Below are positions 1 through 8,198 of a stretch of 25,011 nt of DNA, one piece after another. Both the position numbers and the translations under genes were made by a program. Positions within the stretch are counted from its first letter, which is position 1; every line of letters starts with the position of its first letter. The notes under the pieces are model-generated. The model worked only from the letters and a program-made list of their open reading frames with translations. It did no database searches and had not been told where the DNA came from. This stretch comes from a virus (Duplodnaviria; Caudoviricetes), in IMG/VR virus record IMGVR_UViG_3300031689_000051, positions 1-25,011 of that record; one strand, 5' to 3'.

Positions 1-92
1 ATAGTTGCTGTTCCTTCTGTTTCTGACATTGTCCAATAGCTAGGAAGTTGCTTACCACTGAACCACTCTATGAAATGCTGTTTGTAAGCCAT
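1..92 (-). CDS. 5' part of a gene running off the window (MAYKQHFIEWFSGKQLPSYWTMSETEGTAT...), probably another virion/adhesin protein
   Basis: ATG at 92-90 overlaps the stop of the 92..1030 gene (TAATG); frame is open to position 1; absent from the ORF track. Confidence 0.75.
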   Translation of the reverse strand, partial: MAYKQHFIEWFSGKQLPSYWTMSETEGTAT

Positions 93-1030
93 TATGGAGT
101 CTCTCCTGAGAGTTGTTCATACCATGATGCTGATCTGTAGTTTGTTGCTTCTACTCCACCTTCTTCTTTAAAGTCAATATCATCTCTATGATACATCTTT
201 CTAGTATCAGTTTCTTCAAATCTACTTCCTACTTGTACGTTAGTTGGTTTAGATGTAAGTTCTGTAACTTCTTTCCCACTTCCTGTATTGTATAATGATG
301 TGATTTCTGCTGATGTTAATACTCTACTCCAAATAGACATTTCATCTAAAAGACCATAATGGTTTCCATCTCCACCACCATCATCTCCTATTCTCATTGT
401 TCTTTGTGCATTATTAGCAGTTCCAGCAGCTCCTTGACTAACTGTGGTTTCTAATACGCCATCAACATAACAATTATAATCATTACTCCCTAAAGTTAAA
501 TCTACTGTCATAGTTATCATGTGCCAATTAGTATCATTTGGAACTGCTGTACTTGTATCTGTAATTATACTAACTGCATTTGAAATGATAATATTTTGAT
601 AAAATGAACCATTGTAAAATGCTATTCTAGTTCCAGTTGCTCCAGCTCCACCTGCATTATTTGCTAATATTGTCCTAAATGAAGTGCTACCTGCTGTTTT
701 TTTATACCAAAAGTTAAAACTCCATATTGCAGTTGCACTATGCATAAAATCATAAAGTGATGAAGTTCCAACTTCTGCATAACTTGAACTTGTTGTTCCG
801 TTCCATGAAATTGCATTACCAACTTTTCCAGTTTGTGAATAAGTTAAGTTTGCTACTGTAGTTGAATCTGCGGCAGTTCCTAATGAATCAGTTGAACCCA
901 CAGTAGTAGCCTGATTGATAAGATTTCCACTTGCTTCATTCATTTTCCAATATGCTTTTAATCCTGTTAAATTAAATCCTGTTGCAGCTAACCCTTGAAT
1001 CCTTCTACCTGCGTGATATGTAATAGCCAT
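92..1030 (-). CDS. LamG/concanavalin A-like domain protein, putative fibre-attached adhesin
   Basis: LamG hallmarks GLKAYWKMNE, WSFNFWYK, DTNWHMITMT, YVDG, GLLDEMSIWSRVLTSAEITSLY; AGGTGG Shine-Dalgarno-like sequence upstream. Confidence 0.8.
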   Translation of the reverse strand: MAITYHAGRRIQGLAATGFNLTGLKAYWKMNEASGNLINQATTVGSTDSLGTAADSTTVANLTYSQTGKVGNAISWNGTTSSSYAEVGTSSLYDFMHSATAIWSFNFWYKKTAGSTSFRTILANNAGGAGATGTRIAFYNGSFYQNIIISNAVSIITDTSTAVPNDTNWHMITMTVDLTLGSNDYNCYVDGVLETTVSQGAAGTANNAQRTMRIGDDGGGDGNHYGLLDEMSIWSRVLTSAEITSLYNTGSGKEVTELTSKPTNVQVGSRFEETDTRKMYHRDDIDFKEEGGVEATNYRSASWYEQLSGETP

Positions 1031-1046
1031 CAGTCAATCATTCCAC

Positions 1047-1715
1047 CTATGCAATCTGCACTACCTGTGAAGCACCGTTTTTCCATAATGTGATATATAG
1101 ACCATCATTATTGGCATCTATTTTTCTTGTAAACATATATCCAGTTGCATTTTGTGTTGCAGCTGTTGGAGTATAACTAACTATTTGAACAGTAGAAGCA
1201 ATTTCTGGATCCATTCCACCACCTGCTGCATCTGCCCATGAAATAGCAGTTGCACCAGCATTTGTTGTTAAGACTTGATTTGCAGTTCCTCTTGCTAATC
1301 TAGCATTTGCTGAACCTGTATAAATGTAAACGTCACCTTCTGTTGTAAGTGGACTAGCATCTACAACTGCCCAAGTATTATCTCCTCTAAGGAATGTAGT
1401 TGCATCTTTAGTACCTGTTGCTGTAAGTCCTGTAGTTGCTGGTAATCCTGTAGCGTTAGTTAAAATACTTCCTGCGGCTGGTGTTCCTAATACAGGTGTT
1501 ACGAATGTAGGACTAGTTAATGGTGCTTTTAATGCTAGGTCTGTTGTAAGATTAGTGATATCTGATTGTGGTTGGGTATGTGATACTGCTAATAAATTTG
1601 CTATTGTAACTTTTTTTGTGATTGGTGTGACTGCTGGATCGTCTACTATTGGTATAATATCAGTAGATATAGGGCTAGTTAACTCTCCTAAATTCTCTAT
1701 TTTGGTATTAGCCAT
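1047..1715 (-). CDS. Short tail fibre-like protein
   Basis: N-terminus MANTKIENL...IVDDP...KKVT is shared with 4902..6491; fibre-shaft-like motifs [31 protein letters not shown]. Confidence 0.7.
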
Positions 1716-1737
1716 TATATAAATTTAGCCCCTATTA

Positions 1738-1746
1738 GATATAAAG
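1738..1746 (-). promoter_or_regulatory. Archaeal TATA box for 1047..1715
   Basis: CTTTATATC ending 22 nt before the ATG at 1715. Confidence 0.75.
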
Positions 1747-1750
1747 ATTA

Positions 1751-1855
1751 TCATTTAAAAATACTACCACATTTCACACATACAGCATGTTTATCATATG
1801 TTTCTGATACATAAAACTTCCAGTTACAACATGGACATTGTTTATTATAATTCAT
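1751..1855 (-). CDS. 34-aa zinc-ribbon microprotein (MNYNKQCPCCNWKFYVSETYDKHAVCVKCGSIFK)
   Basis: Hand-translated; two CxxC pairs; start overlaps the halogenase 3' end and it fills the gap up to the next promoter. Confidence 0.7.
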   Translation of the reverse strand: MNYNKQCPCCNWKFYVSETYDKHAVCVKCGSIFK

Positions 1856-3395
1856 TATATATCTCCTTTTTTAGATACTCATATAAACTTGGTGAATCTT
1901 TTACCACATCATTCCAAGCCTTTTTACGGTCATCCATCTGTTTTATTGGTAGTAAAAATGAAGTATAATCAAATTCTTCTACCTTATTACCATATCTTAA
2001 AGTATTATCACTTAGAGGAAAATATCCATATCCTGCACTTATACAATTAATTCCCACTTCTTCATTATATCTGAAATCATATATTTTTGATTTAATATGT
2101 TCCCTAAATCCATGATGTTGTGTAGGTGATAAATCATAAATTCCCTCATCATAATTTCTATTGAGATTATCTTTCCAGTATGGAGTATCATCTCTTTCAC
2201 CTAAAGCATAGTGCATACTAACAAATTCTGCCCAGTTATGGAATGTATTTCTACAAGCATAATTATACACATCTCTATCCCACTGTGATATGTTATCTCT
2301 TTCAAACATTCTTGTTAGATATGATAAGAATTCATGAACTGTGTATAATCCATTACTTTCAAGTGGTTCAATGAACCCTGCTGATAATCCTATTGCTACA
2401 ACATTCTTTACAAAGAGTTTATGATGAATACCTATTTTCATTTTAATGTTAGTGAATTTACATTTAGTGATGTCAAACTTTTGTTTCTTTAGATGTTTCT
2501 TAAGTTCCACTAATGCCTTTTCATCTGTTGTATATTTGTCAGAATATACATATCCAGTACCTATTTTACTCCATAAAGGAATATTCCATACCCACCCATT
2601 TTTTAATGCAGTTGCATTTGTAACACCTTCAAGTTGTTTTTTCTTATCTGTATATTCAACATGTGTTGCCCATGCCTTATTGTTAGGTATAATATCATTA
2701 TATGATATGAACGGTTCTTTCATTGTTTGTTCAAGTAGTAGAGATTTAAATCCTGTACAATCTATGAATAAATCTCCTGTAATAACATCACCATTATCTA
2801 ATGTTAAAGAATCTATACCTTCATCATTAATTTTTATATCCTTTACATTTGATTTAATATGAGTAACTTTTGGTAGACAGATATTATCTCTTAACCATAA
2901 AGCAAACTTTGTTGCATCAAAATGAAATGCTGTATCCCTTTTAAAATCAAAATTACCTAACTCCTTACCTTTATACACTTTGTTATTATTTACCATAGAC
3001 ATTATTGGATAATATGAATCTGCATAATCTGTGTTTGGTGTTTTAGGTTCAATTAACTTTTTAAAATACCATAGATTTAACCTATTATCATCTATCGGTT
3101 CAGGTTGACTAAATGGATATTCTACTCTGCCTGAGTCCATTTTATTAAAATTTGTGAATCGTATTGTAAATTTATAGGAAGCATCACATTCTTTCATAAA
3201 ATCTTCATCTTTGATTTTAACTAAAGATAACCATTGTCTAAATTGAACTATTGTTGATTCACCTACACCAACTGTTTTTATATCTGGTGATTCAATTAAT
3301 GTGACTTTCTTTTTAGGAAATAGTCTAACAAATGTTGTGGCTGTCATCCATCCTGCTGTGCCTCCACCTACAATTACAATATTATTTACTCTCAA
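1845..3395 (-). CDS. Flavin-dependent halogenase, tryptophan halogenase (PrnA/RebH) family
   Basis: FAD-binding VGGGTAGW, GVGEST, Lys in DASYKFTI at the position expected for the catalytic Lys, FIDCTGF, WxWxIP motif GWVWNIP, FIEPLESNG; TTG start preceded by GAGGA. Confidence 0.93.
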   Translation of the reverse strand: MRVNNIVIVGGGTAGWMTATTFVRLFPKKKVTLIESPDIKTVGVGESTIVQFRQWLSLVKIKDEDFMKECDASYKFTIRFTNFNKMDSGRVEYPFSQPEPIDDNRLNLWYFKKLIEPKTPNTDYADSYYPIMSMVNNNKVYKGKELGNFDFKRDTAFHFDATKFALWLRDNICLPKVTHIKSNVKDIKINDEGIDSLTLDNGDVITGDLFIDCTGFKSLLLEQTMKEPFISYNDIIPNNKAWATHVEYTDKKKQLEGVTNATALKNGWVWNIPLWSKIGTGYVYSDKYTTDEKALVELKKHLKKQKFDITKCKFTNIKMKIGIHHKLFVKNVVAIGLSAGFIEPLESNGLYTVHEFLSYLTRMFERDNISQWDRDVYNYACRNTFHNWAEFVSMHYALGERDDTPYWKDNLNRNYDEGIYDLSPTQHHGFREHIKSKIYDFRYNEEVGINCISAGYGYFPLSDNTLRYGNKVEEFDYTSFLLPIKQMDDRKKAWNDVVKDSPSLYEYLKKEIYNEL

Positions 3396-3426
3396 TTTCC
3401 TCTACAGTTATATTGTAAATATGTTA

Positions 3427-3435
3427 TTAATAAAT
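3427..3435 (-). promoter_or_regulatory. Candidate TATA box for the halogenase cassette
   Basis: ATTTATTAA ending 31 nt before the TTG start; would give a ~10-nt leader containing GAGGA. Confidence 0.45.
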
Positions 3436-3436
3436 A

Positions 3437-4897
3437 CTACGTTACATGCCTAATTACTGCATATCCAGTACCACCACTTGAATTAGTACCACTCCAACTA
3501 CTTCCATTACCTGCTCCATGTCCTGTATTAGCACCACCAGCACCAACCGTACCAGTGTTTGACTGTGTTAGATGAGCTCCACCTTGACCACCTGTACTAT
3601 AAGTTCCTGAAACTGTTCCCCAACTTATACTTGTTCCTGAACCTCCATCTCCACTAGTGAAAAGATTATTATTAGCACCACCATCGAAGATTCCAGATGT
3701 ACCATTTGCTGAAGATCCTCCTCCTCCTCCTCCACCATGATGTCCAACTCCACTTCCTCCTGATCTTGATCCATGTGTTGCATATGCAGTTACACCTGAT
3801 TTTAAAACAGATCCACCAGATCCTCCTCCTCCACCAGCATCTGCTGATCCACCAGCTCCTCCTCCACCATGAGCTCCACTTTTTCCATTCCTAGTAGCAA
3901 TGGTTCTTCCACCGCCTCCGCCACCATACCCTGCAACATTACCGTCAAATGATGAATTTGTACCATTTGCTGAACCATTATCAGAACCAGCACCACCTGA
4001 ACCTACAACTACATTTAATGTACCAGTTGACGGTGTGAATGAATTTGTTATTAATATTCCTCCTGCTCCCCCTCCACCACTTGAATGTGCCCCATGTCCT
4101 CCGCCACCACCTACTAGGAATACTTGGACTTGATAACCAACCGAATTAACAGTTCCACCTGAAGTCGAAGTCCATTTATAATAATCATATCCACCTGATT
4201 GAGAGAATGTAGCACCTGTTGTTGCAATAGTAGAGGCAACAATAAGTATAGTTGCGGTTGTTGAATATGAACCAGATGCGAAAGTATTTACTGCTTTTAC
4301 ACGATAGTAGTGATTTACATCTTGTGTAACGTTTGAATCGGTATATGACGTACCTGTTCCACCTGATGTCTTTGTTGTAATTCCTGATGAAAATGAACTA
4401 GATAGGGAATGTTCCAAAGTATATGTCACGCTTGGTATTCCAGATGCGGTATTCCAAACAATTCCAACATTTGGTTTATTATCAGTTAGTGCCAATCCAG
4501 TAACCTGTGATGGTGTAGTTCCGAGAGTTCTTGCGTTTATAACTGATGATACATCTCCTGTACCTATAGAATTTATTGCAGAAACTCTATAATAATATAA
4601 AGTATAAACTGATAAACCTGAATCACCAAAACTTGTTGTACTATTACTTGATGCTACAGTAGTCCATGAACTTGAACCATTTGGACTTCTTTCTACAAGA
4701 TAACCACTCACTGCTGGTGTTGCATCTAATGCGTTCCAAGTAACTGTTAATTCAGTTGAAGACTCTGGTGTTACTCCTACACCTGTAACTTGATCTGGTT
4801 TACCCCCACCTGCGGCTCCAACAAATCCTATATTAAATATATCCATTGGTTTGGATAATTCTTTATTCTTTTTTATTATACTATCTCTATGCGACAT
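3437..4897 (-). CDS. Two fibronectin type III domains plus glycine-rich domain; putative distal adhesin (alternative start at 4846)
   Basis: FN3 patterns LTVTW..YLVERS..YYYRVSAINSIG and IVW..YTLEHS..YYRVKAVN; Gly-rich domain from FLVGGGGG to GGTGYAVIRH. Confidence 0.8.
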   Translation of the reverse strand: MSHRDSIIKKNKELSKPMDIFNIGFVGAAGGGKPDQVTGVGVTPESSTELTVTWNALDATPAVSGYLVERSPNGSSSWTTVASSNSTTSFGDSGLSVYTLYYYRVSAINSIGTGDVSSVINARTLGTTPSQVTGLALTDNKPNVGIVWNTASGIPSVTYTLEHSLSSSFSSGITTKTSGGTGTSYTDSNVTQDVNHYYRVKAVNTFASGSYSTTATILIVASTIATTGATFSQSGGYDYYKWTSTSGGTVNSVGYQVQVFLVGGGGGHGAHSSGGGGAGGILITNSFTPSTGTLNVVVGSGGAGSDNGSANGTNSSFDGNVAGYGGGGGGRTIATRNGKSGAHGGGGAGGSADAGGGGGSGGSVLKSGVTAYATHGSRSGGSGVGHHGGGGGGGSSANGTSGIFDGGANNNLFTSGDGGSGTSISWGTVSGTYSTGGQGGAHLTQSNTGTVGAGGANTGHGAGNGSSWSGTNSSGGTGYAVIRHVT

Positions 4898-4901
4898 AAG
4901 G

Positions 4902-6491
4902 TCATGCCTCTACTGCGTATGCGGCTACAATATCTGTATCTGCTGAACCAAAACAGGTTAATGTAAGTATTGCTGTTTTACTTGGAGCTATATCAGTAGG
5001 TTTTGCTCCAACAAATTTCCATGATGGGAATGCTAAAGTATATGTAGATGAACCAGATGAATTGTATAGTTTGTATGTTTTAGATTTACCTGCTGCTTTA
5101 TTAGATGGTGTAGCGAATGTGGAATGATTAGTTATTGTTAATGTTTGGAGTTGATCTTCTGCAAAATCAATAGTAAGAGATCCACTTGAAGTATCATGTA
5201 TTAAGTTTTGAATATTATCAATATTATTACCTGCTACATCTAATGAGGCTGTTGTGGTTGTTCCTGTAAAAGTATTTGCTCCAAGAGTTGCTTTTGAATT
5301 TAATATATCTGAATATGTTGATGTCATAACTCTATTTCCTGTACCTGATGAAGATATAGCACAGAACATATACAATTCTGGTGACCATACTATTTCGTAC
5401 CAAGTTACAGCGTTGGCAGTTGTTCTAGTTGTCCAGTTAATACCGTCAGGTGAAGTCATTATTCCAGTATCACTTAAAGCACAAAATAATGATATTTCAG
5501 GTGCCCATGTTACAGTTAACCAAGACTGAGTAGGAACTGTTCTAGATGTCCAAGTTGTTCCATCTGGGGATGTTATTACTCTATCACTTCCACTATTAGA
5601 TACCGCACAAAATAGAGTTAATGATGATGACCATGTAACACTTTGTAATGCTGAAGAAATTGGTGAAGTTCTATTTGTCCAATTTATTCCATCTGGTGAT
5701 GTCATTATTTTGGTGGAACTTTGACCTACAACACAAAATAATGTTAAATCTTCTGACCATGTTATATCACCCCAATAGTTTGAAGAACCACTAGTAGTTC
5801 TAGTAGTCCAGTTAGTTCCATCTGGTGAAGTCATAACTTGATTGTTAGTACCATCAGTAGATACCGCACAAAATAGAGTTAATGATGATGACCATGTAAT
5901 AGATTGCCACGAATTAGCTGTTGATGCACTTCTACTAGTCCAGTTAATACCGTCAGGTGAAGTCATAACTCTGTCAGTACCGTTTTCAGATACAGCACAG
6001 AACAATGTTAAATCTTCTGACCATGTTATAGCCTTCCAATTATTAGCTTGTGATGCATTTCTACTAGTCCAGTTAATACCATCTGGTGAAGTCATAACTC
6101 TTTGTGATCCATCCCAAGAAAGAGCACAAAATAATCCTAATGAATTAGCCCATGCTATACTTCTCCAACCATTATCTTGTGCAGATGTTCTTGTTGTCCA
6201 TGTTTTTGCATACAAGTCACCCTCTACAGAATTTTTCATTGAAGTTAGATCATCTGTAAGTGAAATTACACCTGCTTGTGGCAATCCTGTTATATTTGTT
6301 GCTACTCCACTTGCAGGAGTTCCCAATGCTGGTGTTACTAGGGTAGGTGAATTATTAAGAAAAGTTGCAATTTGAGTTACAGTTGCTTTTTTACTTGCAG
6401 GTGATACAGAAGGATCATCAACTATTGCTACTAAATCCTCACCTGCTACTGCGGCTATTGCTGATAAATCTGTAATTTTAGTGTCTGCCAT
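4902..6491 (-). CDS. Tail fibre/spike with Asp-box (BNR-like) beta-propeller
   Basis: About seven ~43-aa repeats WxxITWSxxLxLFCAVS...TSPDGxxWT; N-terminus shared with 1047..1715; C-terminus shared with 6729..8048. Confidence 0.8.
   Translation of the reverse strand: MADTKITDLSAIAAVAGEDLVAIVDDPSVSPASKKATVTQIATFLNNSPTLVTPALGTPASGVATNITGLPQAGVISLTDDLTSMKNSVEGDLYAKTWTTRTSAQDNGWRSIAWANSLGLFCALSWDGSQRVMTSPDGINWTSRNASQANNWKAITWSEDLTLFCAVSENGTDRVMTSPDGINWTSRSASTANSWQSITWSSSLTLFCAVSTDGTNNQVMTSPDGTNWTTRTTSGSSNYWGDITWSEDLTLFCVVGQSSTKIMTSPDGINWTNRTSPISSALQSVTWSSSLTLFCAVSNSGSDRVITSPDGTTWTSRTVPTQSWLTVTWAPEISLFCALSDTGIMTSPDGINWTTRTTANAVTWYEIVWSPELYMFCAISSSGTGNRVMTSTYSDILNSKATLGANTFTGTTTTASLDVAGNNIDNIQNLIHDTSSGSLTIDFAEDQLQTLTITNHSTFATPSNKAAGKSKTYKLYNSSGSSTYTLAFPSWKFVGAKPTDIAPSKTAILTLTCFGSADTDIVAAYAVEA
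5320..6200 (-). repeat. Intragenic tandem repeats encoding propeller blades
   Basis: Exact 42-nt direct repeat at 5597-5638 and 5858-5899; exact 27-nt repeat at 5740-5766 and 6004-6030; unit about 130 nt and in frame. Confidence 0.9.
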
Positions 6492-6512
6492 GATTAAATT
6501 AATTATCTCATC

Positions 6513-6521
6513 CTAATAAAG
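6513..6521 (-). promoter_or_regulatory. Archaeal TATA box for 4902..6491
   Basis: CTTTATTAG ending 21 nt before the ATG at 6491. Confidence 0.7.
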
Positions 6522-6522
6522 T

Positions 6523-6732
6523 TTAGGATAAGAGTAATTTACCTCCATCTGATTTGAGTAATATACCTTCTCCAGTTGTACTGTTTTCAGGAACAAATTT
6601 GGTTCCATCTTCTTGAAGATAGTCATCTGTTGTAGTTTCTAACTCATATAATTCATTAAAGAATGTTTGTAAAAGTGAATCTTGTGCTAGACTTGACATC
6701 CAACCAATATTGTATATATTTTGAATGGTCAT
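6523..6732 (-). CDS. 69-aa protein, putative fibre adaptor
   Basis: ATGA overlap with the upstream fibre gene; N-terminal NIYNIGW; C-terminal YLQEDGTKFVPE and LLKSDGGKLLLS. Function is inference. Confidence 0.7.
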   Translation of the reverse strand: MTIQNIYNIGWMSSLAQDSLLQTFFNELYELETTTDDYLQEDGTKFVPENSTTGEGILLKSDGGKLLLS

Positions 6733-8048
6733 TCTTGTACTCCGTATGAAGCAATCACTCCACTTTCTATACCAGTTCTACAGGTTAATGTTAATATTCC
6801 TATTTTACTGGCTGCTTGATCTGATGGTTTTGCTCCAATGAATATCCAACCTGCTGGGAATGTTAAAGTTCTTATTGTAGCATCAGTTGTAATTATTACT
6901 GTTTTACTCCTACCTATTGCTATATTTGATGATGCTGCAAATGTTGTATCAGCTGATATAGTTATCTCTTGTAATTCATCTCCTGCAAAGTCTAATGTTG
7001 TTGTTGCAGTTGAAAAATCATGAATTAGGTTTTGAACATTATCTACATTATTTCCACTTACATCTACTGCTTGATTAAATGTCCATGAATCGGTTGCATT
7101 TATCCAGTTAATGGTTTTATCTGTTGCACCTTTTAATGTGATACCACCACCATCTGCTGTTGTATCTGTTGGAGATGCAACTGATCCCATTTCAATATTT
7201 TTATCATCAACTGTTAATGTTGTAGAATTAATTGTTGTTGTAGTTCCGTTTACTGTTAAATCACCTGCTATTGTTAAATCGTTAATACCAGTAAGATCTT
7301 TACTTGCATCTACAATGAGTGCTTTTGATGCTGTTACTGTACCTGCTGTTGCACCTAGTAAAGTGGTATTTGCTGTTACAGCAGTATTATTTGCAACTTC
7401 TGTATCGAAATCAACAACTGTACTTGCTGCTTGAGTACCTGTATGACCTGCTCTTGCTAGTGGATCTGAGGCTAATTTTGAAAGTGCTATGTTTGCTGAT
7501 GAGTTAATATCTTCATTTAGTATTGTATCGTTTGCAATTTTTGTTGATGTGATTGATGAATCTGCTACTGCACCTCCACCGTATTCTACCCATTCTAATA
7601 CTGCACCGATAGTTCTAGCCATTAATATTGTTGGTACTGTTGCACTTAGGGCTTTATCTCCTGCTGTTAATGTGGTGATTTTACCTGCACCTGCACCACC
7701 GTTTTGATGTTTAAGGTTAACTATTCCTAATCCAGCAGCTTTTACAACGTATATTAAATCTCCTTCTGAGATAGAAGAAGCTGAATCACTAGCATAATTA
7801 GTTGATGGTAATGAAGTTGTTACTGCTGATAATGTGTAAATATCTCCTGTATTTGTTACTTCAACATATGAATCTGTAATATCAATGTCATTAGATGCTA
7901 TTGCTTGAGCACTTTTTGTTAATCCGAATATACCATCTGTCTTTGGATTCTCATTCCATTCATCAGAACCAACTGGAGAAGTCCCATCATCTGCGTGGGT
8001 TGTTGTGTTTACTAGTGTACTATTACGACCATAGCCCTTTCGTGCCAT
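6729..8048 (-). CDS. Tail fibre protein
   Basis: T/A/S-rich; fibre-type segments HTGTQAAST and GDLTVNGTTTTINSTTLTVDDKNIEMG..ADGGGITLKG; follows the baseplate genes. Confidence 0.8.
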   Translation of the reverse strand: MARKGYGRNSTLVNTTTHADDGTSPVGSDEWNENPKTDGIFGLTKSAQAIASNDIDITDSYVEVTNTGDIYTLSAVTTSLPSTNYASDSASSISEGDLIYVVKAAGLGIVNLKHQNGGAGAGKITTLTAGDKALSATVPTILMARTIGAVLEWVEYGGGAVADSSITSTKIANDTILNEDINSSANIALSKLASDPLARAGHTGTQAASTVVDFDTEVANNTAVTANTTLLGATAGTVTASKALIVDASKDLTGINDLTIAGDLTVNGTTTTINSTTLTVDDKNIEMGSVASPTDTTADGGGITLKGATDKTINWINATDSWTFNQAVDVSGNNVDNVQNLIHDFSTATTTLDFAGDELQEITISADTTFAASSNIAIGRSKTVIITTDATIRTLTFPAGWIFIGAKPSDQAASKIGILTLTCRTGIESGVIASYGVQE

Positions 8049-8051
8049 GTG

Positions 8052-8198
8052 TTACCGTCCAGTTACTGATTTGCCAGTAGAACTCTTTAGAATAAATGGA
8101 GTAGATTCTTCAAACAATATTTTGGTATCAAGACCAGTACTGCCTGTTTCTCTCAGATTAATTCTATCTAATAAGCGAAATAAATTTTTAATACTCAT
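8052..8198 (-). CDS. 48-aa hypothetical protein (MSIKNLFRLLDRINLRETGSTGLDTKILFEESTPFILKSSTGKSVTGR)
   Basis: Hand-translated; TAATG overlap with the 8198 stop; ends 3 nt before the next ATG and fills the gap. Confidence 0.75.
   Translation of the reverse strand: MSIKNLFRLLDRINLRETGSTGLDTKILFEESTPFILKSSTGKSVTGR

Follow-up and report, generated by a model that had tools for sequence, protein, structure and literature searches.

Conserved module pairs at neighbouring ends of fibre and adhesin genes, candidate plug-and-socket joints in a putative marine archaeal tailed virus

In branched tailspike complexes, XD domains act as docking stations; in CBA120 TSP2 and TSP4 they lie near the N-terminus and dock folded TD domains (PMC11721090). 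Glycine-rich adhesins form another group: T-even gp38 attaches to its fibre by a helical domain (PMC12032242), and gp38-like tip adhesins have been described in haloarchaeal tailed viruses (PMC8651126). In Pseudomonas phage DEV, gp56, gp55 and gp54 provide a trimeric fibre tip, a small adaptor and a receptor-binding protein from one operon with overlapping stop and start codons, gp55 and gp54 being modelled together on a beta-helix tip (PMC12892993). Head D31 of a V5-like fibre, RBPseg class TC8, joins an unassigned density, for which an adhesin adaptor has been proposed (PMC12143355). Here these systems are compared with the fibre cassette of a 25,011-nucleotide stretch of viral DNA (Duplodnaviria; Caudoviricetes; IMG/VR record IMGVR_UViG_3300031689_000051, positions 1 to 25,011), referred to as the window. 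Neighbouring ends of its fibre and adhesin genes carry three conserved pairs of modules, which are likely to be interchangeable plug-and-socket joints, a reading to which we assign a probability of about 0.6. The modular system itself is real, conserved and statistically strong.

Three types of joint are proposed. In the first, a C-terminal knob called S1, presumed to be trimeric like its gp9/gp10/XD look-alikes, would grip a short, hydrophobic peptide at the N-terminus of the next gene product, the plug (phi-x-N/D-phi-G/A-F/W-phi). In the second, acidic beta-hairpins (phi-phi-phi-E-D-G...) would grip N1, the N-terminal module of a further fibre, and in the third a tail called S2 would grip a small module, P2, which bears inserted LamG or glycine-rich domains. 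Fibre 1 would carry a 69-aa adaptor via S1 and the adaptor would carry fibre 2 or fibre 3 via N1; fibre 2 would bear an FN3/glycine-rich protein at its end via S1, and fibre 3 a LamG protein via S2. From the modules we infer binding, trimer state, stoichiometry, virion position and receptor binding, and it is the stoichiometry that would decide between a tree and a chain with alternative ends. The parts are as follows.

6729..8048, minus strand: fibre 1 (439 aa), with an N0 module (DDGTSPVGSDEWN), a shaft and a C-terminal socket S1
6732..7070, minus strand: socket S1 subtype A (CRTG...ASYGV), a predicted beta-sandwich knob with remote likeness to Phage_phiTE_241_C and gp9/gp10/XD
6523..6732, minus strand: 69-aa adaptor with plug, amphipathic segment and acidic hairpins; its start overlaps the fibre-1 stop (ATGA)
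6700..6717, minus strand: plug A, IYNIGW
6526..6621, minus strand: acidic hairpin repeats (YLQEDG..., ILLKSDGGKLLLS), the proposed N1-binding part of the adaptor
4902..6491, minus strand: fibre 2 (529 aa), with N1, seven TSPDG-type repeats and socket S1
6351..6491, minus strand: N1 module (MADTKI...IVDDP...KKAT), a predicted beta-hairpin plus helix
4905..5246, minus strand: socket S1 subtype B (FGxADTDIVAAYAV)
3437..4897, minus strand: plug-B protein, with leader, FN3 (PF00041) and glycine-rich domain (PF21722), a putative tip adhesin
4823..4840, minus strand: plug B, IFNIGF
1047..1715, minus strand: fibre 3 (222 aa), with N1, a short shaft and second socket S2
1050..1184, minus strand: second socket S2 (KIDANNxG...KNG..VQIA)
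92..1030, minus strand: LamG protein, a split P2 frame with N-terminal MAITYHAGRRIQG (992-1030) and C-terminal KPTNVQVGSRFEETDTRKMY (191-250)

An earlier reading, made from the sequence alone, had claimed that fibres 1 and 2 end in the same domain and that the gene after each begins with a similar plug. The first claim is confirmed: the two C-termini align over 114 aa with 49% identity (E 2e-31), nothing else in the pair aligns, and the shared domain is 113 aa long. A profile built from 14 S1 sequences (cut-off E 1e-3) recovered 4,065 clusters, and the domain is C-terminal in 144 of the best 150 of these matches. The second claim is confirmed as well: the six frames of the window contain two instances of I[FY]NIG[FW] and no more, at 6717-6700 and 4840-4823 (minus strand). 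Plug B lies 19 codons into its ORF (open reading frame), after a conserved MSHRDSxIKKNKELxKPM leader.

The order of socket then plug also holds across other contigs. Genes were called in the collected loci, one row was kept per distinct N-terminus, and the motif was sought within 35 aa of the start of the gene that follows; S1 genes truncated by a contig end, or with no next gene within 150 nt, were excluded. After S1, the strict plug is found at 17/37 distinct loci versus 1/1,516 other N-termini and the relaxed plug at 31/37 versus 2/1,516, where the looser motif has a chance of about 2e-4 in a random 35-mer of pooled composition. With the loci fetched through the adaptor removed, the strict form is found in 10/29 and the relaxed form in 24/29. 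One of the two background plugs has its upstream gene cut off and the other lies two genes past an S1 gene. Across proteins that are otherwise unrelated, from archaeal-type and bacterial-type viral contigs alike, the plug can be aligned without gaps. Of the S1 subtypes, CRTG stands before the adaptor in 6/6 cases and the others in 0/31. A complex prediction for three S1 copies with adaptor residues 1-34, run without controls, scored 0.02 against a mark of 0.32 and by the rule of the tool counts neither way. No match to S1 was found by tblastn against annotated phages or by a scan of genome contigs, PDB sequence searches matched neither S1 nor N1, and Pfam and PHROG hold no family for S1, N1 or the adaptor. 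P0008, P0031 and P0066 are candidate branch nodes, being proteins in which S1 is repeated three times in tandem or lies inside a chain with an S2-type end; P0066 is of the latter kind, with an S2-type motif at its end.

The S1 monomer is modelled by AlphaFold2 as a confident beta-sandwich (pLDDT 96). Within the PDB it is most like the Pa223 capsid-spike knob (E 5e-4, Z 8.3, rmsd 3.1, 106 residues aligned), and Foldseek also returned T4 gp9 (E 9e-3), gp10 (E 1e-2, TM 0.46) and CBA120 TSP4 (E 0.2); VIA gave Z 6.8 (9f4a) and Z 5.3 (TSP4), its matches including a KP1 baseplate chain at Z 6.8. In the viral library, where the matches are phage fibre C-termini, the best was a phiTE fibre (E 6e-8, TM 0.74), and the Atlas matches reach TM 0.82-0.83 to the aligned parts of PF26209. 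With Pfam Phage_phiTE_241_C (PF26209), S1 has in common both this structural match and the C-terminal placement in phage fibres. It is predicted to share the fold of that family and, more weakly, to resemble the T4 gp9/gp10 and CBA120 XD docking domains; a sequence profile search with S1 did not match phiTE_241. The sequence-only reading had taken gp37/gp38 pairing as the analogue; the predicted fold of the socket matches these beta-sandwich types and not the gp37 tip. The Pfam, PHROG and structure hits for the cassette proteins and S1 include no gp37/gp38 family or structure. The modelled resemblance to phiTE_241_C, gp9/gp10 and XD is the closer precedent.

The predicted beta-sandwich of S1 may resemble the fold of the XD domains (Z 5-7), and S1 shares with them the proposed docking of another N-terminus and modular swapping; no sequence similarity was detected between them. 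Unlike XD, S1 lies nearly always at the extreme C-terminus and its proposed partner is a seven-residue motif. The PF26209 domains are its best structural neighbours in both the viral library and the Atlas; both are C-terminal, and phiTE_242 starts like a plug, the gene 3' of phiTE_241 beginning MIPFAIIGFVGG. The gene 3' of Caulobacter S2B gp10 begins MIPFK. A partner motif for PF26209 was not found in the literature searched, and the available phiTE text (PMC11972413) gives no description of a joint. Large genes 3' of PF26209-type fibres in phiTE, V5 and ESCO5 start with a hydrophobic M-phi-P-phi peptide (L370 21109-22350; L371 2017-3765; L373 1800-3255) and are candidate tip adhesins.

The plug-B gene shares with gp37/gp38 and the hafunavirus adhesins a glycine-rich putative adhesin directly 3' of a fibre, a proposed N-terminal attachment and a hypervariable cassette (PMC12032242, PMC8651126). 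Its glycine-rich PF21722 domain (E 1e-6) is absent from the 69-aa protein. In contrast to the helical attachment of gp38, the contact here would be between a beta-sandwich knob and a short peptide. Many unrelated proteins begin with the plug, among them a linker that is not an adhesin.

The sequence-only reading had placed the LamG protein in the same plug scheme, which proved not to be the case: its use of an S1 plug is rejected, as none is present and the protein is tied to fibre 3 by the unrelated S2/P2 pair. The S2 tail of fibre 3 is followed by a P2-motif start (MAITYHAGRRI-type) in 32/34 distinct loci, which accounts for the partner of the LamG protein. The P2 background is 23/1,488, made up mostly of further P2-family modules of the same cassettes. 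P2 is split by the LamG domain in 92..1030; contiguous versions exist elsewhere, and the insertions are LamG or glycine-rich domains. Two fibre-1 relatives that are 77-78% identical across residues 1-340 terminate in S2 rather than S1 and are followed by P2, so that socket and partner switch together. All four combinations of N0 or N1 with S1 or S2 are found (N0/N1 x S1/S2: 10, 14, 6 and 15 proteins); the modules, their gene order and their conservation are observed, as is the free recombination of modules. Long arrays of P2-family genes (YHAGRRI, EYKDSKRI and WLAGNRI starts) occur in L001 (11605-18037), L335 (11800-16174) and L337 (7131-11547), often after genes ending W.E.GT, and are possibly daisy-chained adhesins.

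The hairpin/N1 pair is the weakest of the three joints. Its centre is the 69-aa ORF, a genuine gene that forms seven clusters with 57-90% identity, all of 69 aa, and that recurs in 13 other loci in a metagenome scan, a scan of viral contigs having given no matches; on this conservation a spurious ORF was rejected. Where its neighbours are visible, an S1 gene lies upstream in 11/11 loci and an N1 gene downstream in 12/12, whilst the fibre bodies vary on both sides. The genomic checks that the sequence-only reading had set for its idea are passed by the socket-then-plug order, by the conservation of this ORF and by its constant position between S1 and N1 genes. The earlier description of a protein with little beyond the motif and repeats needs amending, since a conserved amphipathic segment occupies about residues 12-29. 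For the Tfa family of tail-fibre assembly chaperones, the 69-aa protein gave no Pfam or PHROG match. The N1 module that had been proposed for fibres 2 and 3 is upheld, their N-termini aligning at 41% across 92 columns (E 2e-14); its model (pLDDT 83) has weak matches only, to a Milano baseplate chain (E 3.0; PMC10811340) and a 7-7-1 fibre (Z 2.9), which serve as a lead at most.

Hairpins like the C-half of the adaptor end small ORFs 5' of N1 genes in other viral contigs. In a pattern scan at least two hairpin units precede N1 in 16/94 cases versus 23/1,448, about 10 of the 16 being adaptor-selected, and with adaptor loci excluded hairpins lie somewhere in 22/103 N1 loci versus 2/131 others, a set that is not dereplicated. 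Five of 23 long records are N1-positive; when all five and 6 of the 18 negatives were examined, with hairpins judged by eye among pattern hits, arrays were found in 4/5 positives versus 0/6 negatives (p 0.015, post hoc). A 973-aa hub-like protein ends in hairpins directly 5' of an N1 gene, a 506-aa repeat protein carries four hairpin arrays (L333, G017), and gp55 of Roseobacter phage CRP-5 bears hairpins and precedes the N1 gene gp54. Repeat proteins with LEDGxG hairpin arrays at intervals (L333 in G017; L335-L336 in G019) are candidates for scaffolds that hold several N1 fibres. The multi-hairpin proteins of G017 and G019 may work on the model of the rope-type scaffold gp39 of A1002, in which repeated strands dock fibre units; the A1002 scaffold docks Ig-like dimers, and homology to the hairpin proteins was neither seen nor tested (PMC13730344).

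The adaptor and fibre 1 overlap at stop and start codons as in the DEV operon. In DEV, however, the adaptor sits with a receptor-binding protein on the tip, whereas here it would link a fibre to a second fibre. Of the branched tree that the sequence-only reading drew, multivalent scaffolds are seen in relatives only; with one adaptor gene the chain of this virus would be a linear extension unless several adaptors sat on each socket.

A number of observations weigh against the three pairs being joints. The case for binding draws wholly on genomic evidence or on analogy of fold, and the relaxed plug and hairpin patterns were drawn up after the data had been inspected. Linkage alone could explain the co-variation of socket and plug subtypes, and the next gene has no plug in 5/29 S1 loci. 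The XD matches lie at Z 5.2-6.8, a range that may reflect a common arrangement, and the available text on the Pa223 capsid-spike knob, the top structural match, mentions no partner for it (10.1101/2025.06.11.659172). In four further phiTE-clade records, out of 300 matched, two next genes are unrelated and two start M-phi-P-phi-P, so the literal plug is not universal. For the second joint, 81/103 N1 loci have no hairpin in the fetched flanks, one N1-positive long record has none, and a profile of the archaeal adaptor C-half is not significantly enriched 5' of other N1 genes (p 0.05-0.24).

The last two of these points would also fit an arrangement in which the tip joints S1-plug and S2-P2 are genuine, the 69-aa protein does no more than cap fibre 1 or help it to assemble, and the N1 fibres attach to the virion independently, with no chain. 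N1 fibres do often hold the first-fibre position without an adaptor, assembly-protein-like genes follow S1-family genes in some phages, and tip-binding chaperones of fibres have been described (Pam3 gp25; PMC9608196). Yet the adaptor precedes N1 at every one of the twelve loci, and hairpins accompany N1 both in a cultured phage and on scaffolds unrelated to each other; we regard this alternative as unlikely. S1 might instead be a knob at the fibre end that binds a receptor or trimerises the chain and has no protein partner, in which case the peptides shared by the N-termini would be relics of recombination with a crossover just inside the next gene. Its top solved match is indeed a terminal knob, and recombination in the cassette is heavy: where the window has S1, a contig whose capsid protein is 100% identical has S2; the plug, though, is kept with conservative substitutions at varied distances from the stop codon, after varied leaders and in very distant viruses, and we regard such a partnerless knob as improbable. 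More improbable still is that the joints are real but that plugs and N1 bind virion proteins encoded elsewhere (capsid, tube or hub), adjacency being operon order: S1 genes lie beside capsid genes in L043, L045 and L051, so that location varies, and P2-family modules also follow genes without S2 (the 23 background hits), but a plug is almost never found without S1 directly upstream (2/1,516) and the switch from S1 to S2 is accompanied by a switch in the start of the next gene.

If the plug-and-socket joints are real, thousands of unannotated fibre genes (the 4,065 S1 clusters) could be wired to adhesins from sequence, the receptor-binding proteins of uncultured marine archaeal viruses would become identifiable and testable, and small trimeric knobs with plugs of seven residues would serve as compact joints for display. 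The module pairs would be likely to let a virus chain fibres and swap host-binding tips. A wider proposal is tentative, at somewhat under an even chance: marine archaeal viruses and many bacterial phages would share an undescribed three-connector code of short motifs (S1/plug, S2/P2 and hairpin/N1). Free recombination of this code, and its multiplication on scaffolds that bear several hairpins or combine two sockets in a chain, would give branched fibre-adhesin trees with a wiring legible from the gene ends; the 69-aa protein would be the minimal converter between two connector types. Such a combinatorial kit common to archaeal and bacterial viruses would be unusual. Docking domains and tip adhesins are known in principle. 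Neither the short-motif code nor the fibre-to-fibre converter turned up in the literature searched, and the same is true of the second and third connectors. The available text of a virome survey of ammonia-oxidising archaea (10.1101/2025.08.23.671958) names neither fibres nor adhesins. The motifs themselves are nowhere described in the literature searched, which covered the 2019 papers on marine thaumarchaeal viruses as cited references only, so an earlier mention is possible.

As the late region of a head-tail virus, the window has its structural genes on the minus strand. Capsid, portal and tail tube are present and the capsid is nearest to those of archaeal viruses, which places the virus among archaeal Caudoviricetes; its matches in annotated phage records come from viruses of archaeal hosts in 11/11 cases. 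Contigs in four bins of metagenome-assembled genomes (Nitrosopelagicus, Poseidoniales, Paraglaciecola and a bacterium) are matched by the capsid too. The host is probably a marine archaeon; the bins matched by the capsid are of differing groups. Attachment of the fibres to the tail is assumed from gene order. In three relatives S1 fibre genes adjoin the capsid gene (L043 4160-4807; L045 5608-6333; L051 5500-6333), which suggests head fibres there and that these may use S1 too. Four further features frame the cassette.

Minus strand, late gene order: portal, capsid, tail tube, probable tape measure, hub-like gene, then the fibre cassette
8052..8198, minus strand: 48-aa ORF kept 5' of fibre-1-type genes, with one hairpin-like stretch; candidate fibre-1 anchor, absent from the list of the sequence-only reading
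6506..6533, minus strand: hairpin with TATA-like box (CTTTATTA, from 6521), 30 nt 5' of fibre 2 and covering the adaptor stop codon
1740..1746, minus strand: TATA-like box CTTTATA, 31 nt 5' of fibre 3

Each of fibres 2 and 3 had been credited with its own promoter. A CTTTAT(A/T)(A/T) box does lie upstream of each, its start 30 nt from 6491 and 31 nt from 1715; this spacing recurs at three other late genes (5/11 such minus-strand boxes), and a spacer of about 30 nt like that before fibre 2 is present in 12/12 relatives examined; promoter function, predicted from the TATA-like boxes, is plausible. A sigma-70 promoter scan was at chance level (39 vs 44), with a model unsuited to archaeal promoters.

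The body of fibre 2 contains six exact TSPDG motifs and one degenerate copy, read from the sequence (window 5313-6200, minus strand). These Asp-box-like repeats are likely to form a beta-propeller; a Pfam search gave no match above cut-off. The TSPDG-repeat body is kept in L096 and other bodies substitute for it in other relatives.

The 48-aa ORF, a possible anchor of the first fibre, has relatives in L001, L002, L090, L100, L101 and L211, and counterparts of 41-43 aa precede N1 fibres in L052, L189, L244 and L335. Within the fibre cassette there is also a gene of the tryptophan-halogenase family (PF04820, E 4e-102; window 1845-3395, minus strand), and such a gene likewise lies 3' of the plug-B protein in L045, L046, L049, L051 and L100.

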